Source: an uncultured Nitrospiraceae bacterium
Lineage (GTDB): Bacteria > Hydrogenedentota > Hydrogenedentia > Hydrogenedentales > SLHB01
Assembly (NCBI GenBank): GCA_964493915.1
Contig: CAZBQH010000425.1
Coordinates: 121 to 64,120 of the forward strand
Direction: 5' to 3'
Length of the DNA stretch: 64,000 nt
Part shown: positions 2,520 through 32,063 of the stretch, in pieces
Position numbering within the stretch: position 1 is the stretch's first letter
Layout: each line of letters starts with the position of its first letter
The notes under the pieces: generated by a model
Seen by the model: the letters and a program-made list of their open reading frames with translations, nothing else
The model's database searches: none
What the model was told of the DNA's origin: nothing
Program-made: the position numbers and the translations under genes

Positions 2520-2686
2520 GCTGTGTGCGTTTCTGTTCCGGACGTCCGGGTTTTAGGCCCTGACGTCCTCCCCACGATGTCTCGCGTGACCGCAGTTGTC
2601 TTTGCCTCGCACTTCCCCCTACGAGGTCCTGCAGAGGACTTGCACTTCATAAGAACAGCACCATGCCTGGTACGCAATTGAAAGGG
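2520..2686. repeat. Copy 2 of the ~160-nt structured repeat. It abuts the left att-like direct repeat and lies in the 5' region of the BNR gene.
   Basis: The region aligns to 371-527. Confidence 0.6.
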
Positions 2687-2768
2687 CTTACGATTACTCG
2701 TAAGCCCTTGATATCATTGGTGAACGGGGCGGGGCTCGAACCCGCGGCCACCGGATTAAAAGTTCGAT
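2679..2768. repeat. Left copy of a 90-bp direct repeat (attL/attR-type). It contains the 3' 51 nt of tRNA-Lys(UUU) (2718-2768 on the minus strand, anticodon loop to CCA) plus the terminator hairpin.
   Basis: 89/90 nt are identical to 33177-33265. The tRNA homology stops inside the anticodon stem. Confidence 0.85.
2684..2710 (-). terminator. Perfect hairpin GGGCTTACGA-N-TCGTAAGCCC followed by a T-run on the minus strand. It is a copy of the tRNA-Lys terminator.
   Basis: An inverted repeat plus a U-tract is present. It is identical, except for one loop base, to the hairpin at 33181-33204. Confidence 0.5.
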
Positions 2769-2983
2769 CTTTCGTAACGCAATATACTGCAACCGGTTGC
2801 AACGCAATGATCGGCTCTGCAGGCAGCTGCAATATCCTGCAGCCAATTACCAAAGTGTGTTGTACAAAGTGTTGTACAGACCCGACGGAGGGGCGGTTGT
2901 CGGACAAATATCACGTATTCGCGATGTGGCTCGATTTTGCGGGAAATTATGGGGATTTTCTTGAGACACTATCGCCGTGATTA

Positions 2984-3010
2984 CCGGGGGCGGGATTCGA
3001 ACCTGCGACC
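2984..3010. repeat. A 27-nt motif resembling a tRNA 3' end (reverse complement GGTCGCAGGTTCGAATCCCGCCCCCGG). Its second copy is at 32764-32790.
   Basis: 25/27 nt match between the two copies. It is a T-arm plus acceptor-like sequence. The pair is nested inside the tRNA-Lys direct repeats. Confidence 0.55.
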
Positions 3011-3071
3011 TTATGGGTTATGACCGCGGATGAGTTTTCAGGAACGACAGTGCGCGAATCCAGCAAATCGG

Positions 3072-6041
3072 CTACTTCCCACTCTTTCTGCCGCGCTTCT
3101 TGGTCGCGCGTGCTTTTCTTGGCAACCGGAAGATTTCGAGTTCTGCCTTGGCGAGGAGTTCAGGCCAAAGGTGAACGGCTTCACGATCGTATTTTCGCAC
3201 AGATTCGGGTAGGTTTTCCCAACTCACGATGTAGGGCGAAATCCTGTTCTTAACGCTTTTCTCCCTCCCATAGGTCCAGCCGGAAGCGATGCGTTCCAGT
3301 ACCCAGCGGCCGTGCTCCATCTCAGCCATGCGCTCAATCTCCTTTTTGGTGAACGCGGGATTGTTAGGTGGCAGGCCCGCCGGGCGGATCGCGAAGTTGT
3401 TTGCGCGCAAGATATCCTCGAGGTATTCGATCTGATTACGGTTGAATTCTCGCAGGTCTTCGCGAAGCTTTGCCCACGGCTGCATAACCGGATCGGGATG
3501 GCTGTAGCGCTGCTGATCAAGGAAGTCCTCATGTATTTGCCTGGCTGCAGTCATGACGATTTTCGGCGATAGTGTCGTGGAATCGCCAACGCCAAAATGT
3601 AGGAACGCGCGAACGGTCATGGGGTCTTTGGGCAGGACAAACAGATTGGGTGTCCTATCGGGCGGCCAATCCTGAATAAGCCGCTCGGCTTCGCGGCCGC
3701 TGTTCTTAAGCAAGCCCACCCGCGCGCCCAAGGCCAGTGCAAATCTGTATTCCAGGCCCGCGATGAGTCCGCCGTTGATTCCCAGCAACCGGACATCGGC
3801 GGGTGTGACGCCTGTGGCCAGAAGGTCCAGCCACACCTGAACCGCCTCAGTGGGGCTGAAGAACCGTTTGCTGTCTGTTTTGCGCAGTTCTTTGTATCGG
3901 TCGTCTCGCGTGGCGGTGTTATCTGTTGGCAATTGGGGCGGAAGATAACCGATCGCGTGGATACGGCCTTTGGACTTCTGCGCTATCTCGCCGACCAACC
4001 CGCTGACCCCTTGCTCCGTGCCTCCGGAAATCACCACACCCTCGAAATCGGCGAAGGCCGCATGCAGCAACTCCCGATACGTCTCCATGTTTAATTCGAT
4101 GCACGGGTCGCAACCGCCGGCGACGATGACAAAAGGCCCGTTATGCTGGATAGGTTTCGCAGCTGGGAATGTGACATTTTCCGGCATGGGGATTTCCAGG
4201 AATCGAGAGCGCAAGGCCGCCGCGAGGAATCGCAAGGCGCATTCCAAATCCTGCCGATGGGGTTCATATCCTGCCAACAGGGACGCATCGCAGAGCGCAC
4301 TCACAAGTGCATCCGGCGAACGCGTCTCGCGCACAGCTTGGGCAAAGGTAGCGAGGCTCTCCCATTCCTTGTCGGCGCCAAGCAGTTGCAAGAATCCCGC
4401 GATTCGATACCGCGCGCGGGGCAGGTCGGCCTGGGCTGCAGCCAGTTCGCCGCACCGCCGAATGGCCGTCTGAATCGCAGGCCGCGCAATCGAGACGAAT
4501 TCAGGATCCCTTGCGGTCAGTGCCTTTTGACGAATCACACCGCTGAGCGCCGCCGGATTGCCGGGCTCAGCTTCGAAAGCCTTGAGATAGTGCTTGAGGG
4601 CGCCAAGGTTGCGCCTCTGCTCCGCCAGGGAATCGGCCAGCAGCAGCCTCGGCTCCGCAATGCGCGGAGATATTTGTGCTGCCTCTTCCATTTTCTGCCA
4701 TGCTGCTTTCCGTTTGGCGTCGTTTCTGGCCAGCTTATACATAGCATAACCGCCCAATGCCATAATCATTGGTTTTTTTGATGTATCTATGTTCTTATCT
4801 TTGGCCACTTGGACGACTTCCTGCCAGTCCTCGATCTCCGCTGCCAAGCGGGCGTGGCGCAGCGCCAGATCAAGATCCTTCGGGACGTGCCTGCGGATTA
4901 CGCGCGTCAATTCGATGCACTTGCGCGCGCTGTCGCTGTCCGCGCAGCGCGGCTGATGCGCCTCGTAGAAGGAGATCCCCTCGACCAAACGCTGGAACTC
5001 TTCGTCCGCTGCCTCGAGCAACGCTGCCACGCGGTTGGCCTCACGCTTCCAGTAGTCCGAAATCTCGCATGCCCCTTTGTAGAGCCGGTCGTGGCCGATG
5101 TCCGACCAGGCGTGCTGGGCGATAGTGCGCACTTGAATTTCTGCCTTGAGCCCCATCAATCCGGGCGGGATCTTCACTCCCGCCGGCTTGTTCTTAATGA
5201 TCTGCACGATGTAATGCACCGAGCGATAACCGAACTTGTCGGGACCTAGGCGCGAAAGCATATCCAGGCTGTTAGCTTCGTCAATGTGGAATATCTCGCG
5301 GATAATGCGCTCGACAGCCTCGACTTCGGACGGTAAATGAACGACCACGCGAAGGCCGGCGAGATCGGTCTGTTGATGGACGGGGTCGGTATATTTGTTT
5401 TTCTTGACGGTTTTATCCGCGAAGCTAACCAGCCCCTTGGCTCGGCCCCCGATGGTCGCCAGGGGGAATTGCGGTTTGATGGCCGTTTCGAGAACGCCGA
5501 TCAGAAAGTCCTTCAGCTGTTTGTGCTTCGGCAATGCCCTTACGAAGTCCTTAAGAAATCCGTCGAGTTTCTCGGGTGTTACCAAGGCCTCAGGAGGGCG
5601 CGGCGGTGCCGGTGGCTGTTGCGACTCGATGAATTGTTTGAAGTGGCGGCCCACGCCGCGGAACTGCGGCGAGAAATCAATGTCCTCGAGATCGCTGGGC
5701 GCTACCCACTGAAATTCGTCGTGCTCTTCGCTCAACCGGACCTTGCCCGGCTCCGCCTGCGCCAACATCACCAGGTAGACCACCTGCCGGTCGGGGAGAT
5801 CGGACATGGCGGTCTCAAACGGGCGGATCAGCCGGATGGTCAGGCCGGTTTCTTCGCGTACTTCGCGAGCAAGCGCCACATCGAAACTCTCGTCCGGATC
5901 AATCTTGCCGCCCGGCATTTCCCATTTTCCGGCGTTGTCCTTCGAAGCTGCCGAACGCCGCAGCAGCAGACACCGCCCCTCTGTGTCGAGCAATAGCGCC
6001 TTCAGAGACAACGATTGGGGTTTCGGAGTGATTGTGGACAT
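3072..6041 (-). CDS. A 989-aa multidomain protein made of four parts: an N-terminal Nudix hydrolase, a RelA/SpoT-family nucleotidyltransferase (synthetase-type), an alpha-helical TPR-like repeat region, and a SLOG/LOG-like Rossmannoid domain followed by a C-terminal RyR (Ry) domain.
   Basis: The Nudix box reads GGKIDPDESFDVALAREVREETGL. The RSH synthetase motifs are DLAGLRVVV, GYRSVHYIV and EIQVRTIAQHAWSDIGHDRLYK. The SLOG/LOG-like motifs are VIVAGGCDPC and VVISGGTEQGVSGLVGE. The RyR-like stretch reads EIERMAEMEHGRWVLERIASGWTYG...PYIVSWENLPESVRKYDREAV. Confidence 0.7.
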   Translation of the reverse strand: MSTITPKPQSLSLKALLLDTEGRCLLLRRSAASKDNAGKWEMPGGKIDPDESFDVALAREVREETGLTIRLIRPFETAMSDLPDRQVVYLVMLAQAEPGKVRLSEEHDEFQWVAPSDLEDIDFSPQFRGVGRHFKQFIESQQPPAPPRPPEALVTPEKLDGFLKDFVRALPKHKQLKDFLIGVLETAIKPQFPLATIGGRAKGLVSFADKTVKKNKYTDPVHQQTDLAGLRVVVHLPSEVEAVERIIREIFHIDEANSLDMLSRLGPDKFGYRSVHYIVQIIKNKPAGVKIPPGLMGLKAEIQVRTIAQHAWSDIGHDRLYKGACEISDYWKREANRVAALLEAADEEFQRLVEGISFYEAHQPRCADSDSARKCIELTRVIRRHVPKDLDLALRHARLAAEIEDWQEVVQVAKDKNIDTSKKPMIMALGGYAMYKLARNDAKRKAAWQKMEEAAQISPRIAEPRLLLADSLAEQRRNLGALKHYLKAFEAEPGNPAALSGVIRQKALTARDPEFVSIARPAIQTAIRRCGELAAAQADLPRARYRIAGFLQLLGADKEWESLATFAQAVRETRSPDALVSALCDASLLAGYEPHRQDLECALRFLAAALRSRFLEIPMPENVTFPAAKPIQHNGPFVIVAGGCDPCIELNMETYRELLHAAFADFEGVVISGGTEQGVSGLVGEIAQKSKGRIHAIGYLPPQLPTDNTATRDDRYKELRKTDSKRFFSPTEAVQVWLDLLATGVTPADVRLLGINGGLIAGLEYRFALALGARVGLLKNSGREAERLIQDWPPDRTPNLFVLPKDPMTVRAFLHFGVGDSTTLSPKIVMTAARQIHEDFLDQQRYSHPDPVMQPWAKLREDLREFNRNQIEYLEDILRANNFAIRPAGLPPNNPAFTKKEIERMAEMEHGRWVLERIASGWTYGREKSVKNRISPYIVSWENLPESVRKYDREAVHLWPELLAKAELEIFRLPRKARATKKRGRKSGK

Positions 6042-6553
6042 CAGACTTGCTCCCTAGGTTCCACACCTTACCGGACCGGCGGAAGCGGCAAGGGGTCCTC
6101 CCCCCAAGCTCCGCCTTTGAAAGCTTCCGAAAAAACTGTTCAGGGCCGTGCCGCTTGCGGTTTGCCATTCCGAGGCTCCTTTGTCTGCCGTCGCCGGGTT
6201 GGGACTCTCACAATCCACGGACCAGCTTACAGGGATCAGGGCAGAAGAAGTACCCTAATGCTCCGAATAGTAGCACAGAAGCGTACCCAAATACTGAATT
6301 TCCGAAATCGCTGGATAGCATCCATTCGTGGCGCGCAACGAAAGCCAAGGCGCGCCGTTCCGCGCAAGAGGCTTGCATCCAGTGGGTGAGTGCGCGCCTT
6401 GGCGGAACACGCCTGTCAGCAAGGACTTCGAGCGCGTCACAACCCGCCTACCCGGCGGTCGAGGAATTTGTAGAGACGGTCGGCATGTCCGTATACTCGA
6501 TACTGGCAAGATAAGATTTGCGAAAGGATGCGAGTCTTGAAGAGGTGGAAACC

Positions 6554-8221
6554 ATGGTAAGGCGGCTTGTGAAGAAATGGATGGCACATACTCTTGCGGC
6601 AGTTTGGGCGTTGTTGCTGTTTTCGGCGTGTCCACTCTCGCAGCAGGCAGGGACGGAGTTTGTGACGACAACCGCCGATTGGCTTCCCCAAGATTACGTG
6701 GATAGCCGCGGAATCGTCTCTGTTGCCAATGCGAATGGACGCTTGGTGCTTGAGGCCGACATGAAGGGCCAGGATCCGGAACGCTCGAGCGGGGAGATAT
6801 TGTTGGATCTGCGGTATTATCCGGGCCTTGAAAGCCAGGTTCCGCTGGACCTCAGTGACGAGGCAGTCACGGTGCAGCTTTGGGTTCCCGCCACATTTGC
6901 CGGTCCCACAAACGCACCAAACGGCATACAAGTTTTTGTGAAGGACGCGCAATGGGGCACGTGTTATTCAAAGTGGGTCAATGTAACGCGCGGCGGGAAT
7001 TACCGGATCAGTATGCGTCCTGGCGAGGGGGACGAGAATATCGTTACACCGGGCTTCGGTCCCACCCGAGTGCGGACGCTTGGCGTCAAGTTCGGCATGA
7101 ACGCGCGGAACAGGGATCTATTTTGTGGCACCATTATTGTCACCAGCATCACGATAACGCCTCCGGTGACGTTTTCCCCGCCGCCGGACCTCCCCGCACA
7201 GCCCCCGGCGCCCCTCTCCGCGACCGAACGGTTTGAACTCAGAGAAGATGGATTTTACCGTGAAGGACAACGGCGGTTTCTGGTGGGCGCCAATTGGCAG
7301 CCGATCGCCTATGGCCAGAACTTTGGCGCTACCGCGTGGTTCCCCTTGGGTAACGGCATATCCCGGCGGACAGGGTTTGTCCGCACGAATCTGGATTACG
7401 CCGCGCGGGCCGGCGTCCACGTTGTCCGCGTGGGACTCCTGGACGATGGCCGGGCAGCCCTGGATGCCGACGCGCGCGTGGTTGGGTGTTCCGAGTTGTT
7501 CCGCCAAGATGTGCAAGCGCTGCTGGACATGGCCAGGGACTTGGGATGCCGCATCGAATTCGTCCTGATGGATTACCAGATTGCCGGACAACCGGAGGTG
7601 GTGGATGGCGTTCTTCTACGCGGAAGAAGCCAACTGCTCCACGACGCTGAAACCAGAGCAGCCTTTATCGCCGAGTTTCTGGAACCGTTCCTGGATGATT
7701 TCGGGACCCATCCCGGCCTGTTCGGAATTGACCTCATCAACGAGCCGGAATGGCTGGTGAGCCACACGGATGGGGGCGCTTGGGAAGATGCAGACGACCC
7801 CTCGACCAAACCATCTTCTCCCATACCCGGCGCCGATCTGGCCGCCTTCATCGCCGCCAGCGCTGACACAATCCACGCGCGCGCTCCCCATCTGTTTGTG
7901 ACGGTTGGCGTATCCGCCCCGTTCATCGGCCTGGTCGAGGATGCCGGGCTCGACTATCTCGCCGTCCACCATTACCCCTGGATGGGTGATTTCCCGGACG
8001 CGTTGCCGCCGCTCTCATCGGGCATACCGTGGATGCTCGAGGAATACCCCACCCGATCAACACCCCTGACAGTGACCGAATACCTCGATGGCGCTGTGTC
8101 TGCGGGCGCCGTCGGCGCGATGCTCTGGAACCTGACCCCTGAACTCGATGAATATGCCTTTACCCATGCTGAGAGAAATCCCTTGGTGGAGACCTTGCGG
8201 TACTGGGTCGAAAACCTATAG
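6554..8221 (+). CDS. Secreted lipoprotein-type glycoside hydrolase of clan GH-A (GH5-like). It has an N-terminal beta-sandwich or CBM-like domain.
   Basis: The signal and lipobox read AVWALLLFSAC. The NEP acid/base motif reads DLINEPEW. The nucleophile-like motif reads TVTEYLDG. The RBS GAGGTGG lies before the ATG at 6554. Confidence 0.65.
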   Translation: MVRRLVKKWMAHTLAAVWALLLFSACPLSQQAGTEFVTTTADWLPQDYVDSRGIVSVANANGRLVLEADMKGQDPERSSGEILLDLRYYPGLESQVPLDLSDEAVTVQLWVPATFAGPTNAPNGIQVFVKDAQWGTCYSKWVNVTRGGNYRISMRPGEGDENIVTPGFGPTRVRTLGVKFGMNARNRDLFCGTIIVTSITITPPVTFSPPPDLPAQPPAPLSATERFELREDGFYREGQRRFLVGANWQPIAYGQNFGATAWFPLGNGISRRTGFVRTNLDYAARAGVHVVRVGLLDDGRAALDADARVVGCSELFRQDVQALLDMARDLGCRIEFVLMDYQIAGQPEVVDGVLLRGRSQLLHDAETRAAFIAEFLEPFLDDFGTHPGLFGIDLINEPEWLVSHTDGGAWEDADDPSTKPSSPIPGADLAAFIAASADTIHARAPHLFVTVGVSAPFIGLVEDAGLDYLAVHHYPWMGDFPDALPPLSSGIPWMLEEYPTRSTPLTVTEYLDGAVSAGAVGAMLWNLTPELDEYAFTHAERNPLVETLRYWVENL

Positions 8222-8950
8222 GCCTCGATATTCGGCGCTATAGGCAGAGTCTTCGTCGGGTGGCCGTATTCCAACCGCAATGATGACCACCTCTATCTCC
8301 GAACGCTCCTCATCCTCCACGATGGTACCGATGATGATTCGAGTGTTACGCTCGACGCTTGATGTGACCTGGGCATGGACTTCCGATACTTCGCGCATCA
8401 GCAGGTCGCTCCCACCACGCACACTGATGATGACGCAGAAGGCGCGGGAGATGTCCGTGTGATCGAGGAGCGGGCAGGTCAGGGCGTTTTTGGCGGCGCG
8501 GGTTGCTCGTTCTGCGCCACCAGATACCCCTATACCCATCACGGCGCGGCCGCGTCCCCTCAACATGTTGCAGACATCAGGAATATCCAGGCCTATCAGA
8601 CCGCGGTTGGAAAACGCGTCGGCAACAGCGCGAATGCCTGTGTGAAGCACTTCATCACTCATGTGAAACGCTTCCCCCAGACTCACCCGGCTATCCGTCA
8701 GTTCAGCCACCCGGCCGTCGGGAATCGCAATCAACACATCGGCATGTTCGCCGAGCGCATGCAGGCCGTCAAGTGCTTGGTCCATGCGTGGTTTTCCCTC
8801 AAAGTGGAACGGCAGGGTCGCAAAGGCCATCACGAGCGCGCCAGCAGCAGCAGCTTCTTCGGCGATGACCGGCGAAGCCCCGCTGCCCGTGCCGCCACCC
8901 AGTCCCAGCGCCAGGAACACGATGTCCGCGCCCTGAGTCATGTCACGCAA
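8216..8950 (-). pseudogene. ftsZ: FtsZ-like protein lacking the N-terminal 90 to 100 residues. It begins just before the tubulin signature GGGTGSG. It has a TTG start and sits 17 nt downstream of the NACHT gene stop.
   Basis: The FtsZ core motifs are present: [20 protein letters not shown], a T7-like GLIGLDIPDV, and MGIGVSGG...RA..AA. The reading frame is closed by a stop at 9017-9019, so there is no room for the missing N-terminus. Confidence 0.55.
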
Positions 8951-8966
8951 GCGATCCCGATAGTCC

Positions 8967-11216
8967 TCACACTGTCGACTGACAGCCTGCGGGCTGGCCC
9001 ATGGAACGCTCTTCCCTCAGCCACACCCAGTAGCCGAGGAGTTCGTTCCAGTCGCGCTTTTGCATCAGCAGGAAGCGGTAAATATCCAGTAGGCAGGCGC
9101 GGAGACGGTCGCGGGATTCGGCCTGCCGCAGCAGCCAGGGGAGTTCGTCGGCTTGCCGCGCATCCACGGACCGCGCGGCAAATTCGTCGGCCAGCCGCAG
9201 GCGCAAGGCCCGGGCCGTGCCGGCATCGGGCACGTACCGCCGTTCGACCGCCACGTGCAGGTACTCGTGCGCGAAAGCCAGTACGCCGTCGCGGTCAACC
9301 AGGCCATCCTCCAGCGCGCAGCGCACTGGCGACCAGAGGGCAGCGGGCAGACGTTCCTGTCCGGCGGGTTTCAGCGCCTCCAGCAACTCCGGTTCGGTCA
9401 GGCCGCGGCGGGCGGCCCAGAGCAGCGACAAGGCCTCGCGCACCAGCCCGGGCCAGTCGCGCTCGTAGTCGCGCTCGAAGCGGGTCAGGATCTTGCCTAG
9501 CAAGGCGGGGATGTCGGCGGCCTGGAGATAGTCTGCGATTTGCCGGTCGAGCAATTCGTGGTCGCCCGTGGCGCGCAAGTCGTCGAGCAGGGTCTTGATG
9601 TACAGCGGATTGGAGGCCGCCGCCGCGCCCGCGATCTTCCGCGCGCGGGACTCGGAAAGGCCCTGCGCGAAGTGGGCGAGGTAGCGTGCGATCAGCCGGA
9701 CGCGTTCCTCCGTTGTGAGCGGCTCGACGGTGAGCGCGGGCCAGTCGCGTGGTTGTAGGGCGTCTAATGTGTCGCCGGGCAGGGCGGAGACGACCAGACG
9801 CAGTTCACCGGGCAGGCGATACGGCAGCCAGGCCAGCAGACGACCGCGTTCCCGGTCTTCGAGCTGGTTGAGGGCGTCGAGAACAAGGACCGCCCGGACC
9901 CCTTTCTGCCTGGCCCGTCCGGCGAGGCGGCTGAGGTAGTCGGGAAAGACCTTCACGATTTCCTCCGCCGCGGCGGGAATCTTCTTCTCTTCCTCCTCGA
10001 GCCCGCTCGCGCCGGCGGGATCGTCCGCGCCGCACCAGCGAACAATGGCCACCATCAGCCGGCGCATCAGGGCCAGATGCCCGGCGCTCATCGCGGAACT
10101 GCCGATGTAATGCTGAAACACGAAGTCGTTGGGGTTTACCTGACGCCGGCGCGCCACCCAGTTGGCCAGGAGCGCGGATTTGCCGCCCCCCGACGCGCCC
10201 AGAATGGTCAGACCGCAGCCATCGGCACCGTCGCGGGCAAAGGCGTCCAGCCGGTTGAAGTAGGCGTCGCGCCCGATGTAGAAGGCGGTGCGGCGGCTCT
10301 TCGCGTAGGCTTCGTGGTCGCGGTCTTCGCGAGACCAGTCGTCGGGCGTTTGGTCGGGCGGGAACTCGGCGTCAATGGCGCCCGTGAGATCGGCGAGAAC
10401 GAGGACGGCGAGGGCGTGGGGATGAGCATAGTTCTCGTGCAGGGGGATGCCCTTAACGTCGCAAACCGCCCTCACCTTCTGTTTGAGCGCTTCCTGGCGG
10501 GCGGCACAGGCGGCATCCTCCGCCAGGTAGTCGCCGCCTTGGGACGCGGCGTAGTGCGGGTCGCGAAAATAGAAGAAGGCCCGCCCGGCCATTTCGGGGT
10601 CGTTGAGCACGCCATGATAGATTTCCAGTTCGGTGACGCTGTGTTTGGCGACCTCGCGCTTCAGCCAGTCTTCTTCATCCAGGAGCGCCGGCGTAAAGGC
10701 CTCCGGGCCGGGCGTCCAGCCATAGCGTTCGCCCAGCAGCCCGATGAAGTAGGGACGGCAGCGCTTGATCTCCGCCAGACAGTGGCGCAGCGTTTCCTTC
10801 CGCTGCGACTGTTCTTCGGTGACACCCCAGCGCAGGTCCACCTCGACAAACTCCACCGCCCGCCCACGGCAGACCTTCCGCAGGGCCGGCCAGACGTGGG
10901 CCATGAGTTCGTTGCGATCTTCGATCATGTCGCGAAACGTCGAAGAGACGAAGACGCGGACAACGCGGTCTTTGGCGGAGGACTTGGGGTCCGGATTGGA
11001 AACGCGATCGGCGTCCGGGGGCGCGCTACTCGTGTTCGCCGGGGTCACCTTTTCTTGCCACAGACTCGCGGAGTCGGCATTCCCCGCTGTGCCGGGCGGT
11101 GTGTCGCCTGGCGGACATTGGGCTGAAGCGCTGGCCGGGGCCGGTGCTTCCGAATCATGCTCGGGTTGGTTCTTGTCCGATTTGCCGCTGCCAAACAGTC
11201 GTTTCCACAGGCTCAT
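8967..11216 (-). CDS. STAND (NACHT-type) P-loop NTPase with an N-terminal DUF4062-like domain.
   Basis: The N-terminal motifs are VFVSSTFRDM...DLRWG...FIGLLGERYGW. The Walker A reads ILGASGGGKSALLANW. The long alpha-helical C-terminal region is typical of STAND proteins. Confidence 0.7.
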   Translation of the reverse strand: MSLWKRLFGSGKSDKNQPEHDSEAPAPASASAQCPPGDTPPGTAGNADSASLWQEKVTPANTSSAPPDADRVSNPDPKSSAKDRVVRVFVSSTFRDMIEDRNELMAHVWPALRKVCRGRAVEFVEVDLRWGVTEEQSQRKETLRHCLAEIKRCRPYFIGLLGERYGWTPGPEAFTPALLDEEDWLKREVAKHSVTELEIYHGVLNDPEMAGRAFFYFRDPHYAASQGGDYLAEDAACAARQEALKQKVRAVCDVKGIPLHENYAHPHALAVLVLADLTGAIDAEFPPDQTPDDWSREDRDHEAYAKSRRTAFYIGRDAYFNRLDAFARDGADGCGLTILGASGGGKSALLANWVARRRQVNPNDFVFQHYIGSSAMSAGHLALMRRLMVAIVRWCGADDPAGASGLEEEEKKIPAAAEEIVKVFPDYLSRLAGRARQKGVRAVLVLDALNQLEDRERGRLLAWLPYRLPGELRLVVSALPGDTLDALQPRDWPALTVEPLTTEERVRLIARYLAHFAQGLSESRARKIAGAAAASNPLYIKTLLDDLRATGDHELLDRQIADYLQAADIPALLGKILTRFERDYERDWPGLVREALSLLWAARRGLTEPELLEALKPAGQERLPAALWSPVRCALEDGLVDRDGVLAFAHEYLHVAVERRYVPDAGTARALRLRLADEFAARSVDARQADELPWLLRQAESRDRLRACLLDIYRFLLMQKRDWNELLGYWVWLREERSMGQPAGCQSTV

Positions 11217-11266
11217 GACTTACTCCTTTCCAAACAGCGGATGCGTAGCTCCCGCATATATCGGTG

Positions 11267-11512
11267 CTACAAACGTGATCCCATGACGCCCAGGATGCCC
11301 ACGAAAAAGGGGCGGCACACGTCGATCTGTTCGAGGCAGAGGTCGAGAACGCGGTCGTTCTCGGCCTCCTCGGGCGTAATGCCCCAGCGCAGGTCGATAT
11401 CAAACAGGTGGATGCGGTAGGGCAGCAGCCGTTCGCGCAGCCGCGGAAAGACCCGCTTCACCAGGATATCCCGCTCCGCGTCCATGTCGCGGAACGTCGA
11501 GGAGATAAACAC
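11267..11512 (-). pseudogene. A 5' fragment (about 75 codons) of a third DUF4062-NTPase paralog. It is truncated right after ...CRPFFVGILG.
   Basis: The motifs SSTFRDM...DLRWG...GILG are present. The fragment lies inside the 380-bp repeat at 11287-11666, and the frame terminates after 5 unrelated codons. Confidence 0.65.
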
Positions 11513-11666
11513 CCGTACATCACGCCATCGATGCGATATGGGTCTACTCCATCCCGTGTGTGTTGCTTGCCCTCAGCCCCGTTGCCGCTTGGAAATCAAC
11601 TGCATAGTAGCAGAAGTCGAAGCCAATGGTGAACGAAGAAGTGCAGCGAGGCAACCAGGCATGCGT
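11287..11666. repeat. A 380-bp repeat unit containing the upstream region plus the first 75 codons of a DUF4062 gene. Copy A of two.
   Basis: It aligns to 30740-31119 at about 88% identity, with identical end points. Confidence 0.7.
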
Positions 11667-11727
11667 TAAGGATTCCCGAGGCGCGCCTTTGTGAACTCGT
11701 CGGGTGCCGCTTTGATGCGTCCCCTTT

Positions 11728-12840
11728 TCACGCGGCGCTGTCCAGAAGCGCGTTCATGCACGCCATGGATTCGTCCTCAACCAGTCGAATGGCCCGTATT
11801 GCCTTCTTGTTTCGTGCCACTGTCCCCGCGATCATGTGGAGGCGCCCCACGTTTGCGATAACAGGTTTCCACAGGGGGATGTCCGCTTTCTGTCCGGCTT
11901 GCCACCGTACGGGCGTCATCAGGAAGGTGTTTACATGATGCGACAAACGCTTGTACATCTCGAGGCCGGTCTTTGCCAGACTGCTCATGGCCGCGGCGTC
12001 CATGCCGTCGAGCATGGACAGCAACCGGCTGATGCCCGGGTTGGGATAGATCTCCTTGAAGAACCGGGCCATGTCGTCGGTCAGAAAACGCCGGAGTGTA
12101 CTCAGGTCGCAGCCGAGGGTAAGGTAGACCAGCTCGATGACGTGGCGCAACGAGGGGATGCCGAAGCCTTTGGATACAAGAAAGGCAAACCGCTGGTCGC
12201 TGTGCCATGCGCCTTGGAAAACACACCTTCCCAAGGCGTAGAGAAGCGCATCCACTTCCGCGTTGCCCTCCTCGCAGCGCTTGGCGAGAAGGTTCCGTGC
12301 GTCGTCGCGGAACAGCGAGAGCCTGAGGAAATACCGTTCGCGTCCGTACGTCATGAGGCGGGCAAAGCGTTCATCCAGGAGGGGGTATTCAGGACTGCGG
12401 TATAAATCCTCGGCAATGAGGCTGTACAGATCGTACCAGTCTTGACTGACGCGGGAGACGTAATAGGCGGGCATGCCGAATTCGAGCCGGCGAACGCTGA
12501 AGCTGACATCCCCCTGGCCGATCGTGCGCAGGCTGCTTCTGAGTTTGTCGGGCTGTGCGAGTGAGACCGTCGCCTCTCCATAGAACCCTTGGATACGTAC
12601 TTCCTTGGAAAGCACCTGGTTCGTTGCGTTCAACAGATCCTTCGTGCCGCCCTCCGTAAACAGCGTGTGCCGCAAGGCATCGTACTCGCGCAGGAGGCAG
12701 AAAAGGGACTGCAGGCCTTCGGGATCATACGCCGCCCTGCGGTGCCAAACCCCTGCAGCGTAGTATTTGGAAGGAAACCACGATGCGCCATGCTCGCCGG
12801 TGTCCACCCGGGTTCGTGCACTATGGGCGGCCTTGTCCAT
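11728..12840 (-). CDS. Hypothetical 370-aa protein. It is the last gene of the ClpB-like/MoxR/vWA operon.
   Basis: A long ORF on the same strand lies 20 nt after the vWA gene. I recognised no motifs in it. Confidence 0.5.
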   Translation of the reverse strand: MDKAAHSARTRVDTGEHGASWFPSKYYAAGVWHRRAAYDPEGLQSLFCLLREYDALRHTLFTEGGTKDLLNATNQVLSKEVRIQGFYGEATVSLAQPDKLRSSLRTIGQGDVSFSVRRLEFGMPAYYVSRVSQDWYDLYSLIAEDLYRSPEYPLLDERFARLMTYGRERYFLRLSLFRDDARNLLAKRCEEGNAEVDALLYALGRCVFQGAWHSDQRFAFLVSKGFGIPSLRHVIELVYLTLGCDLSTLRRFLTDDMARFFKEIYPNPGISRLLSMLDGMDAAAMSSLAKTGLEMYKRLSHHVNTFLMTPVRWQAGQKADIPLWKPVIANVGRLHMIAGTVARNKKAIRAIRLVEDESMACMNALLDSAA

Positions 12841-12860
12841 AAAGCCTCCTTTTCTTGTTT

Positions 12861-15026
12861 TTACGCGATATTGCGGCGTTCAGAAACGCAGTTTGCCACG
12901 TAGGACCCAATGACCTGAGCCGCTTCGGCCGCGTTCACGAGGTCGTTGGGCTCGATCACCATCACCGAATCCACGGCGGCCCGTATTTCCTCGGATACCT
13001 TGTCCTCCAGTGCAACCAGTGTAATGTGGAGTCGCTGATTGAATTGGGTTCGCGCAGAATCCAAGACCTCCCGCACTTCCTCGATGGGCGAGCTCTTGGA
13101 AGCGGGGAAGGACTTGTTCCATGAGCAGTCGCTGATAAGAATCAGATACGTTTGTGAACCTCGCGCCAAGGCCTTTGCCTCATCCAGAAGATATGTCAGA
13201 GACAGTGCGTCTGACTGGCGGCCCTGCCCCGAATCCGGCAGGGCGGCGACGGCCCGGACCGCCTCGCTGTGCGAAAACGCCGCTGTTTTTCTGGGGTGAT
13301 ACATCCACTGCACCAGCGGCGCCCCTCCCCGGTTGCCGACCGGGCCGCTGCTGTAAAGTGCCGCAATGATCTCGATCTGCCTGTTTTTGACGCTTTCCAG
13401 CCATGCCGCCACCAGCAGCTTGCACATGCGCATCTGGGAGTCTGTCAATGACGACGAGCCATCCGCGGCGATAAGTAGGAGTGCTTTGCCCGCGGGATCA
13501 CGTTGGGTGGACACGCGGGTCTGGCGGTAGACAGAATCGCTGAATTCCGCTATCGGGAGGCGCCGGGGGTCCATCTGTCCCGATGTGCGCGGGAACTCCA
13601 GTATGAACTCGTCCACCAGGCTCGGGTACAGATTCCGGCGCAGTACGTCGGCGATGGGGAAGGCGTCGTTCCGCAGCATCTGCACTTCGGCCTCGTTCTC
13701 ACTCAGAGCGACGGGCCGGTCAAAGAGTTCGCCCCCGACCTCCTTGCCCCCAAGCTCGCGGGTGATGTTCATCCCCGTTGTCGGCTGCCCCTCGAGAGGG
13801 CCCTTCGCGAAGGGTTTTCGTTCGATGTCTTGGCCAACCAGGTCTTCACGCATATCCTCCCATTGGGCATTCTGCCCGCTGGCCTTGTAGGCCGTTTGGG
13901 TCATGTCTTCGAATGCCTTCTCGGTATCTTTGTCCCGATTGGCCTCTTCGTCGAGGCCCGCCCCAAGATTGGCCACGTCTTCTGGCGTCTGCGAACCGGA
14001 CTGCCTCGAATTCAGCAGATTCTTGAGCACATCCCCGTGAGACGCAGGTTGCGTCAGCGCGGGGGCCCTCGGTTGTCCTAAAGGGGGAATGCAGTCTGAA
14101 TTACATTCCACTTCCTCGTGCTGGGGACCGTATTCGTATCTTTGATGCCCCCGACTGTTGAAGGCGGGCTGACCGGGCCCCTTCTTGGCGGAAGGTTGAG
14201 GCGGCTTGGGGGGCGGTTCGGCGGGCAAAAGAGGCAGTAGAGCGGCCATGATCTTTTTGCCCCAGGATGCATAGGAAGCAAGGGCGGTTTCCCCGTCCGA
14301 CACACCCTCCAATTCGGCATAATCCCTCGAAATGTCGGATAACCAGCGTAGTATTTGCGCCGTCATGGGGTGAAGGCGCATCTCGCTCTGCTCGGGGAGC
14401 ACATCCCCGAACAGCACGGCATGCCGAATCACATCATGGAGGTTCCGGAAGCGCAATGACGACTGTGATACCTGGAAGAGCCGGTAAATCTCCACGCACC
14501 GGAGTTCGGGCGACCTTGTCAGATCCGCCAGAATGGCGCGGTGGGCCAGCGCCAGCGCGACATCATGGCACACCTGCTTATATGCGGGCAGCAGTTTGCC
14601 GTGCCTGTTGGCCTCATCAAGGTCAATAACAGGCGCGATAATCGCTTTGTATATCTCATAAATGAGGCATTCCGTTTCCATGTATATCGTGTGTCCGAGC
14701 GCGGCGCGAGCCGGCCAGGGAAACGAGGTGTAGAAGGCGCTCAACTGGGGCTGCGCACCCTCACCCTTCTCCGGAAAGGCAAACCCGAGGTCGTTCTTGC
14801 GCAGGACGCTCCGCAGGTTCTGGATGGCCTGGTAGAACTTGATCTGCCCCTGTCTCTTGAATGTCCAGGGCGTGTCCTCGCTGAAGGCGCGGTCGATGGA
14901 CGCTCCCGCCCAGGTCTCCTTCGGAAGCACACGGGCGCCATATCTCCCGTGCCCGTAGGTGGAGCACCCGGCGGCCCCGTATCCCCCATACGAGCCATAC
15001 ATCAGGTAATCGTCCTGCATCATCAT
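12861..15026 (-). CDS. A 721-aa protein with a C-terminal von Willebrand factor A (vWA) domain and an uncharacterised N-terminal region of about 450 aa.
   Basis: The MIDAS motif reads LLLIAADGSSSLT. The sequence ILISDCSW is also present. The start codon overlaps the MoxR-like gene stop (ATGA). Confidence 0.65.
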   Translation of the reverse strand: MMMQDDYLMYGSYGGYGAAGCSTYGHGRYGARVLPKETWAGASIDRAFSEDTPWTFKRQGQIKFYQAIQNLRSVLRKNDLGFAFPEKGEGAQPQLSAFYTSFPWPARAALGHTIYMETECLIYEIYKAIIAPVIDLDEANRHGKLLPAYKQVCHDVALALAHRAILADLTRSPELRCVEIYRLFQVSQSSLRFRNLHDVIRHAVLFGDVLPEQSEMRLHPMTAQILRWLSDISRDYAELEGVSDGETALASYASWGKKIMAALLPLLPAEPPPKPPQPSAKKGPGQPAFNSRGHQRYEYGPQHEEVECNSDCIPPLGQPRAPALTQPASHGDVLKNLLNSRQSGSQTPEDVANLGAGLDEEANRDKDTEKAFEDMTQTAYKASGQNAQWEDMREDLVGQDIERKPFAKGPLEGQPTTGMNITRELGGKEVGGELFDRPVALSENEAEVQMLRNDAFPIADVLRRNLYPSLVDEFILEFPRTSGQMDPRRLPIAEFSDSVYRQTRVSTQRDPAGKALLLIAADGSSSLTDSQMRMCKLLVAAWLESVKNRQIEIIAALYSSGPVGNRGGAPLVQWMYHPRKTAAFSHSEAVRAVAALPDSGQGRQSDALSLTYLLDEAKALARGSQTYLILISDCSWNKSFPASKSSPIEEVREVLDSARTQFNQRLHITLVALEDKVSEEIRAAVDSVMVIEPNDLVNAAEAAQVIGSYVANCVSERRNIA

Positions 15027-16099
15027 ACCAAGTCTCCACCCGCAGCGACGGAGTTGGCCGTCTCACGCCGAAATCCGAACACCTCGCAGAAAAGGGCTTG
15101 CGCCGCCTCACGGTCCTCCAGGTTCGCCGACCCGAGAAGTGTCAGGTTTGCGACATCCGGCAGCGGGTAATGCGGGTCGCGGGCGGCCTCCCGGATGAAC
15201 GCGCAATACCCATAGATTGTCGGCGGAGCTAGGCTCAACAGGTTCCCCTGCGCACGTTGCGTGCGCAGCATCCCTCCAAGCTCCACGATATTGAGTACCA
15301 GGCCCTCATCGGTCGCGGGGAGATACTTGGTCTTCATCAGATAACGCAGAATCTCGACTTCTTGTTCTGGGGAGGGGAAGTCAAACGCGATGCTGACCGT
15401 CCAGCGGCGTTTCAGTGCGTCGTCTTGGGTGACGAGGATATGCGTGGACGTTGCATCGGTATGGTAGTTGGAATCGGCGAACCAAGCGACCCCGGCCCCG
15501 CTCACCATGGCGTTGTCAGATATCCGGGTGAATCCCTGCGTCATGAGGTTGAGCAGGCCGCCCTGGATGGCGGCCGTGGACACGCGGCCAATCTCGCGGA
15601 GCCAGATGACGGGATAAACATCATCCAGCACCTTCTTCGACTCCAGGATGGCATTGACGATACAGCTTGGCTCGTCATACGTCTGCCCGTCCCGGATGGC
15701 GCGGCGGTAGTACATCTCCGAGATCGTGTCAAAGACAACCATTTCGACGGGAAACACGCGCAGCGGCTTGTACTTGATGCCCCTCAGCGCGCACAACGCT
15801 TTCCAATTCTCCGGGACATAGGCAAGCGCCTCGAAGAAGCCCGTCTTCGCAGTGCCGGTGTGCCCGTGAATGTGAATCATTTCCGCGTCGGCTATTGCCC
15901 CGGCTATGGATTCCGGGATCCGCTTCGGCAGAACGATGGGCGGGCGGCCCCTGTCTGGCACAAGCGCCACCAGTTCCGAAGGGCCGGCCTTGGCCAGTTG
16001 TTTAGTGTCACGGATATCGTAGATGCTGGGGGCCGTGGAAGCCCGGTTCGCGTCCTGCGCCGCATACGCTTCCGTCTTTGACCGCCGTGCAAATCGCAT
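15023..16099 (-). CDS. MoxR-type AAA+ ATPase of the AAA_5 or CbbQ/NorQ-like type.
   Basis: The Walker A reads IHIHGHTGTAKTGFFEALA. It is about 360 aa, and it is translationally coupled to the downstream vWA gene. Confidence 0.6.
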   Translation of the reverse strand: MRFARRSKTEAYAAQDANRASTAPSIYDIRDTKQLAKAGPSELVALVPDRGRPPIVLPKRIPESIAGAIADAEMIHIHGHTGTAKTGFFEALAYVPENWKALCALRGIKYKPLRVFPVEMVVFDTISEMYYRRAIRDGQTYDEPSCIVNAILESKKVLDDVYPVIWLREIGRVSTAAIQGGLLNLMTQGFTRISDNAMVSGAGVAWFADSNYHTDATSTHILVTQDDALKRRWTVSIAFDFPSPEQEVEILRYLMKTKYLPATDEGLVLNIVELGGMLRTQRAQGNLLSLAPPTIYGYCAFIREAARDPHYPLPDVANLTLLGSANLEDREAAQALFCEVFGFRRETANSVAAGGDLV

Positions 16100-16144
16100 G
16101 GGATTCTCCCTTCTATTCCGCCCGGGTGACGGACGGTGTTGCCA

Positions 16145-18376
16145 TTAGCTTTCCGCGGCGCTCACACTCACGCGCAACCTTCCGTCGAATGCGAGTTCAA
16201 TCCAAGGGACGCCGTCTTTCCTGCTGAATGCCGGGCCGTGCCATGCCTCGACAGCAATCGCGGTTTCGGTGCGGGCCAGCCGGACAAGCCCCCGAGCGCC
16301 GTGGCTCATGGCGCTTGATTCCCACCCCGCCAGCAGGGCATCGGCGGCACCGTTCGCCACCGTGATCCGTGCAGAAGGGCTGCCCAAACGATCCAGCGCG
16401 GTGCGCGCGCTGTCCTCGATTGCCCGATGCACGATGCGCACGCGGGATTCCAGAGAGAGAGGTTCGAATAATACTGGCTCGCCCACGCGGCTTAGAAACG
16501 CACCTGAAACCATTTCTTTGACCGCGCGCTGTACGTCTTTGCTCACATCGGCGTGTACCGGCGCAGGCCCGAAGCCGGTCCGGCGGTATGCCTTCTCATC
16601 TTTGCCGCCGGGCAGGTTCAGCGTGAAGAGAATCGCCAGATTCGAGCATGAGAACATACTGCCTACGGCAGACTGAGCCTCCCCGGTTTCCAATATCTGC
16701 AGGAAGAGGTCGCCCAAAGCGCTCCGCACCGACGGGACTGCATGGTCCAAATCCGCCACTTCGACCACGGCCCCGCGGTGGTGTTTCGCCACCTGTTCGA
16801 GACGCCCCGCCTGGTAACTGCCAACAATTCCGCGGCCGCTTCCCAGAAGTTGCGAAGCCGCCGTATGCGGATCTGGCATGCTCGCAGCATCAATAACCAC
16901 ATACGGAACATCAAGCCACTTCGCCAACAGCGAAAGGGTTTCCGACTTGCCTGTGCCAGGGGTTCCCTGGAGGGCGCCGGTAAACGGTTGGCCCAAGGGC
17001 CGGGTCAGCGTCTCGCGTTTCAGGAGCGCACCGAACTCGTCCAGGGCCCGCTCCTGTCCGAGTACCCGTTCGCGCAGGTAGACTCCCAGTTGAGGGTCGC
17101 AGGCTCCCTGCAGGAAGTGTGCCTGAACCTCGGCGGATCGGTCCTGACTACGCTGTGTCCCGAGCCCCGCGAATGTTTCATGGCATAGACCCAGGCGGGA
17201 TGCGAAGAGGTCTACATCGGGCAAACACCCCCTGCTGCTTTTGGCAACTGCATGTTTGATCAGATGTGGAAGTAGTCGCTTCGCGGTGTTGCCCGGGTGG
17301 CCGGTCAGCGCGTTAAGGATGTCTTCATTTGCTTTGGCCTGAGTCTTGGGGGAGAGCATCGCACCTTCAGCCGCCTCGCGCATCCCGAAAGAGGCAAGCG
17401 CTTCGACCGGTATATCCGGCACCCGCCGGAGAACGGGCATCAAGGGGTCGTTCTTCGCTCCCTGGCCGCCATGGAACAATGTCTGCAGTTCGCTGAACGT
17501 GCCTTCAAACAGGCACGGAGTGCCGGCGCTGTTCAACACCGCAAGAAGACTGGTGGTGGCATTCCCCATTTCGTAAGGGCTCACGGTCAGCCCGAGCGCG
17601 CGCGCCGGCATCACCAGCCGCCCCTCGGTGTTCTGTGCCAATTGCACCAGTTTCTGCGCATCGAGTGAGGGGAGCAGGACTTGCCCAAGAACGATATCCT
17701 TCTGAAGGCAGGCCCCGGCCACCAAGACGATGGCAAGCCGGCGCTCGATATCACATTCGCAGGTAATGCCGATGCACAGCCCCGATTCGAACAAGTCAGC
17801 CGTTTCCGCAGCCCAGTTAGACACTCCGACGGGCACCCCGTCGTCACCGCCGGCCCAGGGCATCACCGGCTTCACGATCCCCTGCATGCCCTTGAATACC
17901 TTGCGCAAGGCGGCCTCGTCGGTCGAGGCTGACCTGGCAGGGCATACGAGAGCCGCCACCTGCCGGATCAAGTCCAATTCGCGGCGCCATTCGGCCAGTT
18001 CCAGAAGACTTGGTATCCCATCCCGCACCAACCGCCTGAGACCCAGCGCGGGCGGAGTTTGCCCTGCCGCCTCTTCCCATCCGAGCATCCAGTGGGCCGA
18101 GAGCTCCGTCACGGATTCCAGTGCCTCGGCAGGTAGTCCTCCAGACCGCAAAGTGAGCGCGCACTCGACGTACACCTCCCCACCCTCGTCGCGTCCTACG
18201 ATAACCTTGATTCCCTCGCGTCCCGCAAACTGAATTTGGCCAGGCTCCACCTCCTTAGTTTCACCCAGGTCAGGCCATGCCTCCCCAACAATACCGGCCA
18301 TGCGTCTCACCAACTGGGCCGGGCTCTGCTTCGTGAATACCTGCCCATTTCCCATGGTCGTGTCGGACGCGCTCAT
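16145..18376 (-). CDS. A 743-aa protein with a C-terminal ClpA/ClpB-type AAA+ (AAA_2, D2-like) domain and a novel N-terminal region of about 430 aa.
   Basis: The stretch GQERALDEFGALLKRE...LQGTPGTGKSETLSLLAKWL...VVIDAASMPDPHTASQLLGSGRGIVGSYQAGRLEQ parallels the Clp D2 sensor and Walker region. Confidence 0.6.
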   Translation of the reverse strand: MSASDTTMGNGQVFTKQSPAQLVRRMAGIVGEAWPDLGETKEVEPGQIQFAGREGIKVIVGRDEGGEVYVECALTLRSGGLPAEALESVTELSAHWMLGWEEAAGQTPPALGLRRLVRDGIPSLLELAEWRRELDLIRQVAALVCPARSASTDEAALRKVFKGMQGIVKPVMPWAGGDDGVPVGVSNWAAETADLFESGLCIGITCECDIERRLAIVLVAGACLQKDIVLGQVLLPSLDAQKLVQLAQNTEGRLVMPARALGLTVSPYEMGNATTSLLAVLNSAGTPCLFEGTFSELQTLFHGGQGAKNDPLMPVLRRVPDIPVEALASFGMREAAEGAMLSPKTQAKANEDILNALTGHPGNTAKRLLPHLIKHAVAKSSRGCLPDVDLFASRLGLCHETFAGLGTQRSQDRSAEVQAHFLQGACDPQLGVYLRERVLGQERALDEFGALLKRETLTRPLGQPFTGALQGTPGTGKSETLSLLAKWLDVPYVVIDAASMPDPHTAASQLLGSGRGIVGSYQAGRLEQVAKHHRGAVVEVADLDHAVPSVRSALGDLFLQILETGEAQSAVGSMFSCSNLAILFTLNLPGGKDEKAYRRTGFGPAPVHADVSKDVQRAVKEMVSGAFLSRVGEPVLFEPLSLESRVRIVHRAIEDSARTALDRLGSPSARITVANGAADALLAGWESSAMSHGARGLVRLARTETAIAVEAWHGPAFSRKDGVPWIELAFDGRLRVSVSAAES

Positions 18377-18413
18377 GACAATCTGCTCCCTTCATGTGGC
18401 CGTCCATGGATAA

Positions 18414-18429
18414 GGCAAGAATCGGGCCA
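18414..18429 (-). promoter_or_regulatory. Putative sigma54 (-24/-12) promoter TGGCCC-GATTC-TTGCC, 38 nt upstream of the ClpB-like gene ATG.
   Basis: GG and GC are spaced exactly as in the TGGCAC-N5-TTGCW consensus. An EBP-like gene is divergently encoded. Confidence 0.4.
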
Positions 18430-18455
18430 GTCTGCGGACACGCAGTAATGCGCTG

Positions 18456-18471
18456 CTAAGCCGTGGCTTAG
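18456..18471. promoter_or_regulatory. A 16-bp perfect palindrome CTAAGCCGTGGCTTAG in the divergent intergenic region. It is a candidate activator or UAS site.
   Basis: It is a perfect inverted repeat seen directly, about 30 bp upstream of the -24 element. Confidence 0.3.
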
Positions 18472-18593
18472 AGATCGGGCAGTCCCGGGAGGCTTTACCG
18501 AGAGCTGGGTTGTTTCAATCGAAATGTTGGGTTAATATTTCAAGAACTCAACACAGTCATCATGAACAACCCTAATACGCAAAGTGGGGGAAT

Positions 18594-21803: not shown

Positions 21804-21837
21804 GCAGCACGCTCCCTCCGAAATTTGCATACGTAAT

Positions 21838-32046: not shown

Positions 32047-32063
32047 GTCCTTTGGCTTCTTCT

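Follow-up and report, generated by a model that had tools for sequence, protein, structure and literature searches.

In a 64,000-nucleotide stretch of contig CAZBQH010000425.1 (assembly GCA_964493915.1), from an uncultured bacterium placed by GTDB in the Hydrogenedentota, an open reading frame (ORF) of 244 codons encodes part of the cell division protein FtsZ, just downstream of a gene for a DUF4062-NACHT NTPase. We call the whole stretch the window. The ORF is probably not a working gene but the remnant, truncated at both ends, of an FtsZ paralogue that is of Hydrogenedentota origin and has diverged. The ftsZ-derived DNA is wedged between two unrelated genes with a junction on each side, and the junction at its 5′ side cuts the ftsZ copy and the NACHT gene alike. 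We present first the extent of the fragment and its two junctions, followed by its ancestry, the explanations that compete for it, and the genomic island in which it lies.

A fragment of FtsZ lacking both ends

Aligning the ORF to FtsZ profiles, as the first-pass annotation of this DNA had proposed for defining the truncation, produced matches to positions 100 to 184 of 190 in the Tubulin/FtsZ GTPase family (PF00091; E = 2.5e-19) and to positions 1 to 94 of 95 in FtsZ_C (PF12327; E = 2.4e-23). In an alignment to solved structures, the ORF corresponds to residues 83 to 321 of Bacillus subtilis FtsZ (E = 8e-51). Both results agree with the annotation, which described an ORF of this length, started by TTG, that holds FtsZ from the GGGTGSG motif through the C-terminal domain. 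The encoded part runs from strand S4 and the T4 loop through helix H7 and the T7 loop to the end of the C-terminal (GTPase-activating) domain, which is whole, and adds 16 linker residues. The T4 tubulin signature is intact (GLGGGTGSG), as is the T5 motif PFxFEG (LPFHFEG). The GTPase domain is nonetheless incomplete: the T1 loop had already been noted as missing, and the alignment shows that T1 (GGGGxN), T2, and T3 are all absent from the fragment. A tblastn search of the whole window for the lost N terminus returned chance matches only, and a search with a full-length relative found no second copy, in line with the earlier statement that this is the sole FtsZ-like sequence in the window.

Homology to FtsZ reaches further than the ORF as counted from its TTG. 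Residues 77 to 320 of P0002, a Hydrogenedentota FtsZ, align by tblastn to window positions 8998 to 8267 (49.6% identity, E = 1.5e-57), which places the limit of homology 16 codons 5′ of the TTG, overlapping the 3′ end of the NACHT gene. In alignments of this DNA, the invariant Pro of the T3-loop motif GAxP is still discernible. Since FtsZ homology continues 5′ of the TTG, this codon and the ATG at 8941 are internal FtsZ codons, and the ORF has no native start; in aligned FtsZs, the two codons fall on internal Leu/Ile and Val/Met positions. The frame is closed 5′ by an in-frame TGA at the place where the first-pass annotation had recorded a stop (Table 1). The only motif of the ORF that resembles a Shine-Dalgarno (SD) sequence is AGGA, 13 nt from the TTG and not properly spaced, compared to a 4- to 7-nt SD match at a spacing of 4 to 10 nt for most genes in the window. 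No sigma-70-like promoter was found for the ORF.

At its other end, the fragment stops 16 residues past the globular domain. A linker of 70 to 100 residues and the conserved tail DLxIPxFLRR are present in all of the FtsZs that we aligned (9/9), and the tail is absent from the fragment. With a regular expression for the C-terminal peptide motif D-L-x-I-P-x-F-L-R, no occurrence was found in any frame of the window, and tblastn searches with FtsZ C-terminal tails over the window gave only chance matches. The convergent gene on this side, which encodes a protein like the beta-mannanases of family GH5, is apparently complete at its C terminus, as judged from PDB entry 3vup, in which chain residues 4 to 327 of 351 match query residues 241 to 542.

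A break shared with the upstream NACHT gene

The first-pass annotation identified the upstream gene as a DUF4062-NACHT NTPase, and Pfam searches bear this out. DUF4062 (PF13271) matches residues 87 to 171 of the product (E = 9e-13), and the NTPase region is matched by AAA_16 (E = 1.9e-7), NACHT (E = 1.1e-3), and nSTAND1 (E = 1.1e-3). Its translation shows a Walker A motif, GASGGGKS, and a Walker B motif, VLVLDALNQLED. A TPR sensor array is not present: TPR_NPHP3 is matched only over positions 14 to 72 of 239, at the extreme C terminus. When 1.84 billion library representatives were searched, the best 150 homologues proved to be mostly 900 to 1,700 residues long, and their alignments to the window protein end at about residues 730 to 744 with hundreds of residues left over. 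The closest of them, P0268 (84% identity, 877 residues), P0260 (82% identity, 929 residues), and P0259 (67% identity, 1,269 residues), match the window protein through ...GYWVWLREERSMGQP (...EERSMGQP; residue 742, window position ~8991). Beyond this point, the three homologues go on with YVQAFERW and TPRs, and the window protein ends in AGCQSTV. The TPR continuation in the closest homologues amounts to 370 to 520 further residues, and tblastn searches with the TPR parts of these three proteins across the window gave only chance matches. A similar limit is seen at the DNA level, where the alignment of the 81% identical locus L017 to the window ends at 9007 (blastn) or 8997 (tblastx), and L017 carries another 1.1 kb of TPR-coding sequence past the end of the alignment. 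In PADLOC, the gene matched nothing but Avs1b, and that weakly. The 749-residue product, labeled "nephrocystin-3", is a sensor-less stub.

Since NACHT homology runs to ~8991 and FtsZ homology begins at 8998, the two genes are truncated by one and the same junction. Relative to that of NACHT, the FtsZ frame is shifted by +1. Translation of the junction sequence, TGGGCCAGCCC, gives MGQP in the NACHT frame or WASP in the FtsZ frame; microhomology at this junction is possible. The NACHT stop is a TGA at 8969 to 8967, which puts the gap between it and the TTG at 16 nt instead of the 17 nt given previously. The picture of an ftsZ 5′ end "overrun" by the NACHT gene also has to be revised, as a single rearrangement would have removed both the TPR region of the NACHT gene and the 5′ third of ftsZ. 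An ancestral adjacency of a NACHT-TPR gene and ftsZ was considered as well and rejected: the gene 3′ of the NACHT homologue in L017 is unrelated to FtsZ, and the P0259 locus holds no FtsZ.

Besides the NCBI contig, three JGI metagenome contigs carry the identical junction; they come from different samples, the source samples being JGI 3300001533, 3300077563, and 3300077317. Two of these contigs, L001 and L002, match the window with 100% identity over positions 2675 to 21216. The third, L019, has one single-nucleotide polymorphism in 2,034 bp, which is the sole difference among the four assemblies at the locus (window position 8650, GTG to ATG, a nonsynonymous V101M change in the fragment). An assembly error or frameshift that hides a full-length FtsZ, the scenario that the first-pass annotation had named as a refutation, was therefore not borne out.

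Ancestry and divergence of the fragment

The nearest full-length relatives of the fragment (P0002 to P0005) share 46 to 50% identity with it, belong to the Candidatus Hydrogenedentes clade of FtsZ, and are encoded in murC-ftsQ-ftsZ clusters. The fragment is not located in a dcw cluster, as it is flanked by the NACHT gene and the GH5-like gene. Of 38 residues that are specific to FtsZ in this phylum, the fragment holds 17, compared to a mean of 2.3 and a maximum of 10 in FtsZs of other phyla, which places its ancestry within Hydrogenedentota.

Within that phylum, the fragment is strongly diverged. Over the region that it covers, 122 Hydrogenedentota FtsZs are on average 85% identical (minimum, 63%), whereas the fragment shares just 48% identity with them (52% at most). 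Its branch length of 0.60 is 3 to 5 times longer than those of sister sequences (0.11 to 0.23), and its identity to outgroups is 40% instead of 51%. Synonymous sites are saturated between the fragment and its nearest relatives. The PBP2 encoded in the window is 50 to 56% identical (typically 53%) to Candidatus Hydrogenedentes proteins that are ~55% identical among themselves; given that this divergence is like that of the relatives from one another, the organism itself is an ordinary member of the phylum with typical divergence.

Replacements in the fragment extend to positions that FtsZs rarely change. It matches 53 of 65 universal FtsZ columns, while other FtsZs match 98.4% (1.6% violated). 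The 12 replacements are, in ORF numbering, A70, D78, V109, F113, G120, I123, P124, L130, R169, C172, I207, and V222. By a separate count, the fragment departs from the consensus at 14 of 70 near-invariant columns, where the mean is 2.4. Several replacements affect the T6 and T7 loops, namely, in E. coli numbering, N165D (D78, in T6), N207G (G120), F210I (I123), and A211P (P124). The T6 loop reads PDG instead of PND, and the NxDxxD pattern of the T7 synergy loop is lost, with GLDIPD in place of NLDFAD, both Asp residues being kept.

We found no other truncated relative of this FtsZ among 5.8 billion proteins or in scans of genome, metagenome, and viral contigs. The genome contig scan returned only unrelated FtsZs at 33 to 40% identity, and the viral and metagenome contig scans contained no relative closer than 35%. 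The members of the lineage are the four contigs described above, which are at least 99.95% identical, and the next match is a full-length protein at 50% identity, a distribution that does not resemble a maintained lineage of paralogues.

Proposed formation of a remnant and alternative explanations

How the remnant formed can be proposed from the two junctions. Illegitimate recombination or deletion within the tRNA-Lys-flanked island would have fused the NACHT gene at codon ~742 with the ftsZ paralogue at codon ~77, the two reading frames being offset by one nucleotide. Such an event would have stripped the NACHT protein of its TPR sensor array, left its ORF to stop 7 codons into ftsZ DNA, and removed from FtsZ strands S1 to S3 and the nucleotide-binding loops T1 to T3. 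A second junction, on the 3′ side, would have removed the linker and the partner-binding C-terminal peptide. The divergence would have arisen while the paralogue was still functional, and the truncation would be recent, hence the open ORF. If made at all, the product is expected to be unable to bind GTP or the partners of FtsZ or to polymerise, and to have no role. The real ftsZ of the organism is presumably in another part of the genome, within a murC-ftsQ-ftsZ cluster such as its relatives have. On this account, the three JGI calls that name the ORF "cell division protein FtsZ" are misleading, and it should not be counted as the FtsZ of the organism.

The ORF has several hallmarks of a pseudogene, in that it is shorter than every homologue, its coding sequence is broken at a point common to its neighbor, it lacks a native start and ribosome-binding site, and it carries an excess of replacements at invariant sites. 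Some observations weigh against a remnant. Another hallmark of pseudogenes is lacking: relative to FtsZ, there are no stops, frameshifts, or indels across the 259 ftsZ-derived codons, and the T4 and T5 motifs are unchanged. By a rough estimate, an ORF free of selection would gain a stop or frameshift before neutral divergence exceeded a few per cent, so the intact frame indicates one of two things, a recent truncation or continued selection on the ORF. The near-identical copies do not separate these two options, as four assemblies that are this similar provide no evolutionary replicate from which to estimate constraint. Retention also differs between universal and phylum-specific residues (53/65 versus 17/38; Fisher p = 1.8e-4). 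Since neutral decay would affect the two classes alike, most of the divergence would have accrued in a paralogue that was diverged but functional, with constraint that was relaxed but not absent, and some of it may postdate the truncation. Finally, cotranscription with the NACHT gene followed by reinitiation is possible, since the ORF is on the same strand, the gap is short, and no terminator was found between the two, and the C-terminal domain of FtsZ, which is joined to the nucleotide-binding domain by H7/T7, has been reported to fold independently (PMC7327170).

Several points favor a recent truncation. The break in the NACHT gene coincides with that in the ftsZ copy, the ORF lacks a native start and a properly spaced SD sequence, and no second example exists in the collections searched. 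In addition, the T4 and T5 motifs are intact even though they would be useless in a protein without T1 to T3.

The intact ORF is the reason for retaining, as an unlikely alternative, that the fragment is expressed through cotranscription and reinitiation at the TTG or ATG and acts on the host or on phage as a division poison or a bait. As a poison, its C-terminal domain and T7 face would cap FtsZ filaments. As a bait, it would mimic FtsZ for phage inhibitors of FtsZ and report to the sensor-less DUF4062-NACHT NADase. Beyond the position and openness of the ORF and the reported autonomy of the C-terminal domain, such a role draws on a confident AlphaFold2 model of the retained fold, with a mean predicted local distance difference test (pLDDT) score of 87.4 and the expected order of secondary structure. 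Scores exceed 90 across most of FtsZ_C, drop to 65 around the T7 loop, and are below 50 in tail residues 233 to 244; the model is driven by homologues and is no judge of the stability of half a nucleotide-binding domain. There are also precedents: overexpression of the truncated paralogue FtsZ1 halts division in Agrobacterium (bioRxiv 10.1101/2025.09.29.679267), the immune protein CapRelEbc senses a phage inhibitor bound to FtsZ (PMC13423816), and DUF4062 is a defence NADase (bioRxiv 10.64898/2026.05.01.722283). Another STAND protein in the island has its WD40 part encoded as a separate downstream ORF. Against expression with a function, the TPR region of the NACHT protein is cut after ~60 residues at the very same junction, which suggests an accident and not a designed pairing. 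The T7 loop and H8, the surface for longitudinal contacts, are the most mutated part of the fragment (N207G, F210I, and A211P), and with half of the nucleotide-binding sheet gone, the N-terminal part is unlikely to fold. The poor SD spacing and the failure to find a second example count against it as well, and PADLOC has no model that matches the fragment. Of the two readings offered by the first-pass annotation, the inactive remnant is thus strengthened by the junctions on both sides, the cut NACHT gene, the lack of a start and SD sequence, the replaced universal residues, including those in T6 and T7, and the singleton status of the fragment. For the cotranscribed effector or decoy, only the uninterrupted ORF and its position 16 nt behind the NACHT stop speak.

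A more specific version, which we regard as very unlikely, is that the fragment serves as a dedicated bait, a copy of the FtsZ surface targeted by phage division inhibitors that is blind to GTP, tail-less, and dead for polymerisation. It would be retained beside the DUF4062-NACHT NADase without its TPR sensor, and its capture of a phage FtsZ inhibitor would lead to NAD+ depletion. If true, it would be a bacterial counterpart of the integrated or paired decoys of plant NLRs and a hard-wired version of the sensing of Gp0.4-FtsZ by CapRelEbc. An expressed bait or poison would represent a new kind of defence component, which the present evidence does not favor.

Two further explanations are highly improbable. 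The NACHT protein and the FtsZ fragment might be produced as one fusion by programmed +1 frameshifting, creating a STAND NTPase with an FtsZ-derived sensor. The FtsZ frame is indeed +1 and open from 9016, such that a +1 shift anywhere in 8970 to 9016 would join the two. By eye, however, we saw no slippery or hungry-codon motif and no prfB-type upstream SD stimulator in 8967 to 9016, no homologue carries such a fusion, and a random deletion would give an out-of-frame join two times in three. About equally improbable is a recent duplication that placed part of the organism's housekeeping ftsZ in the island. The Hydrogenedentota-specific residues would fit a duplicate, but the fragment is far more distant from the FtsZs of its phylum than these are from one another, in an organism that is otherwise typically diverged, and the collection that holds the organism's own proteins has none between 52% and 100% identity to the fragment. 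Least credible of all is an assembly chimera or sequencing frameshift concealing a full-length FtsZ, given the shared junction in four assemblies, the NACHT homology and lack of FtsZ homology in every frame 5′ of the junction, and a missing N terminus that is nowhere in the window.

The surrounding island

TABLE 1 Features of the ftsZ fragment locus and of the island boundaries (window coordinates)
Feature	Position	Strand	Remarks
89-nt direct repeat, distal copy	2680-2768		3′ 51 nt of tRNA-Lys plus terminator hairpin; 98% identical to proximal copy
GH5 (beta-mannanase)-like gene	6518-8221	+	Convergent; fills the position expected for the ftsZ 3′ end
3′ junction	8216-8221	Both	Palindrome CTATAG; encodes the final Leu and the stop of the ftsZ fragment (-) as well as those of the GH5-like gene (+)
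FtsZ fragment ORF	8216-8950	-	244 codons from TTG 8950; 241 from ATG 8941
ftsZ-derived DNA, full extent	8222-8998	-	~777 nt, ~259 codons, equivalent to residues 77 to ~337 of Hydrogenedentota FtsZ P0002
DUF4062-NACHT gene	8967-11216	-	749 codons; C-terminally truncated, Walker A intact
Chimeric NACHT 3′ end	8967-8990	-	Last 7 codons (AGCQSTV) plus TGA stop; ftsZ-derived DNA read out of frame
5′ junction	8991-9001	-	NACHT-TPR homology stops; FtsZ homology starts in the +1 frame
In-frame TGA closing the FtsZ frame 5′	9017-9019	-	Within NACHT-derived sequence
DUF4062 5′ fragment	11270-11512	-	81 codons; directly upstream of the NACHT gene; breaks at 11287
89-nt direct repeat, proximal copy	33177-33265	-	Overlaps tRNA-Lys
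tRNA-Lys(ttt)	33215-33290	-	Proximal island boundary (33177-33290)

The locus lies inside a region of ~30.5 kb with tRNA-Lys at one end and an 89-nt direct repeat of the 3′ part of this tRNA at the other (Table 1). Bracketed in this way and rich in defence genes and insertion sequences, the region looks like an integrated genomic island. A Pfam scan of island ORFs of at least 200 codons, which left out the ORF at 32064 to 32681 and shorter ones, found no integrase of the tyrosine or serine recombinase type; the only recombination genes detected in it were two DDE-type transposases. The mosaic character of the island is evident next to the NACHT gene itself, where the 5′ end of a DUF4062 gene and its upstream region occur in copies that are 88% identical (11287 to 11666 and 30740 to 31119) and broken at the same nucleotide. 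The second copy abuts an ISAs1/YbfD-like transposase gene (29529 to 30686). A rearrangement-prone island littered with gene fragments fits the interpretation of the ftsZ sequence as a scar.

Just inside the island boundaries are two 30-mers that resemble tRNA 3′ ends (2982 to 3011 and 32762 to 32791; 93% identical), in which ARAGORN detected no tRNA. This nested pair may have been left by an earlier integration or by one in tandem. On the minus strand at 258 to 432 is a match to group II intron domains D1 to D4 (Rfam RF02001, 39 bits). Part of this intron region is repeated at 90% identity (370 to 504 and 2529 to 2663), and the second copy starts a few bases past the terminator hairpin in the repeat at the island end. 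The JGI contigs L001 and L002 are only ~70% identical to the window in 2610 to 2674, as if they carried a different intron copy. No intron-encoded reverse transcriptase was seen, and the ORF at 583 to 2400 is BNR/sialidase-like.

A number of other island genes have apparent links to conflict and defence. A second STAND locus (20460 to 27035, minus strand) encodes a DUF4062-NACHT-HTH_NWD1 protein of 868 residues, followed by two separate WD40 ORFs. The first of these, with a 4-nt overlap, encodes 864 residues with a C-terminal PTS-HPr domain, which is unusual on a WD40 sensor, and the second encodes 456 residues. At 3072 to 6041 (minus strand), a 989-residue conflict-type protein combines NUDIX, RelA/SpoT nucleotide pyrophosphokinase, SLOG (LSDAT_prok), and RyR domains and was matched by PADLOC to the candidate systems PDC-S07 and PDC-S33. 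Four codirectional genes at 11728 to 18376 (minus strand) encode an AAA_2 ATPase of 743 residues, with a weak PADLOC match to PDC-M37B, and proteins of 358, 721, and 370 residues without a Pfam family; by eye, the 721-residue product contains a vWA/MIDAS-like motif, DGSSS. A gene for a sigma-54 activator (18594 to 20213) adjoins this block. At the tRNA-proximal end of the island (31174 to 32681, minus strand), an AbiEii nucleotidyltransferase toxin (Pfam E = 6e-37) is encoded, and the overlapping ORF upstream of it looks like the AbiEi antitoxin.

Comparison with known systems

The closest known architecture to that of the upstream gene is the NPHP3/NWD1 type of STAND protein, in which DUF4062 and NACHT are followed by repeats. 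The window protein shares with this type the DUF4062 domain, a NACHT/AAA_16 domain with Walker A, the helical domain, and the start of TPR_NPHP3. It differs in having no TPR array, which spans 370 to 520 or more residues in the closest homologues, and in ending in 7 out-of-frame codons from ftsZ. DUF4062 has been described as a TIR-like NADase of defence systems (bioRxiv 10.64898/2026.05.01.722283).

CapRelEbc, which is triggered by a complex of the T7 protein Gp0.4 with FtsZ (PMC13423816), offers a conceptual analogy for a role as bait or guardee. Here, an FtsZ-derived sequence adjoins an immune gene in a defence island. CapRelEbc, however, relies on the full-length FtsZ of the cell and not on a dedicated fragment. 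Even as a remnant, the fragment shows that a mobile defence island in a Hydrogenedentota bacterium at one time held a strongly diverged extra copy of FtsZ, which is a modest lead given the recent evidence that immune proteins can monitor FtsZ.

Extra copies of FtsZ are also found in the Rhizobiaceae. Agrobacterium FtsZ1 keeps a complete GTPase domain, whereas the fragment has lost its nucleotide-binding half. FtsZ1 and FtsZ3 are, like the fragment, additional diverged copies without the C-terminal tail (bioRxiv 10.1101/2025.09.29.679267). FtsZ3 resembles the fragment in being a noncanonical copy, and its overexpression had no detected effect, unlike that of FtsZ1 (bioRxiv 10.1101/2025.09.29.679267). 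The Rhizobiaceae paralogues are lineages maintained across families (bioRxiv 10.1101/2025.09.29.679267), whereas the fragment is a singleton bounded by rearrangement junctions.

The fragment can also be compared with the housekeeping FtsZ of Candidatus Hydrogenedentes, which is encoded in the dcw cluster murC-ftsQ-ftsZ (for example, P0002, P0416, and P0439). From S4 onward, the fragment has the same fold segments, including T4, T5, and the whole of FtsZ_C, together with the 17 of 38 phylum-specific residues. It departs from these proteins in lacking residues 1 to 76 (T1 to T3), the linker, and the C-terminal peptide, in being 48% instead of ~85% identical to them, in the replacement of 12 of 65 universal residues, and in its position outside the dcw cluster without a native start.

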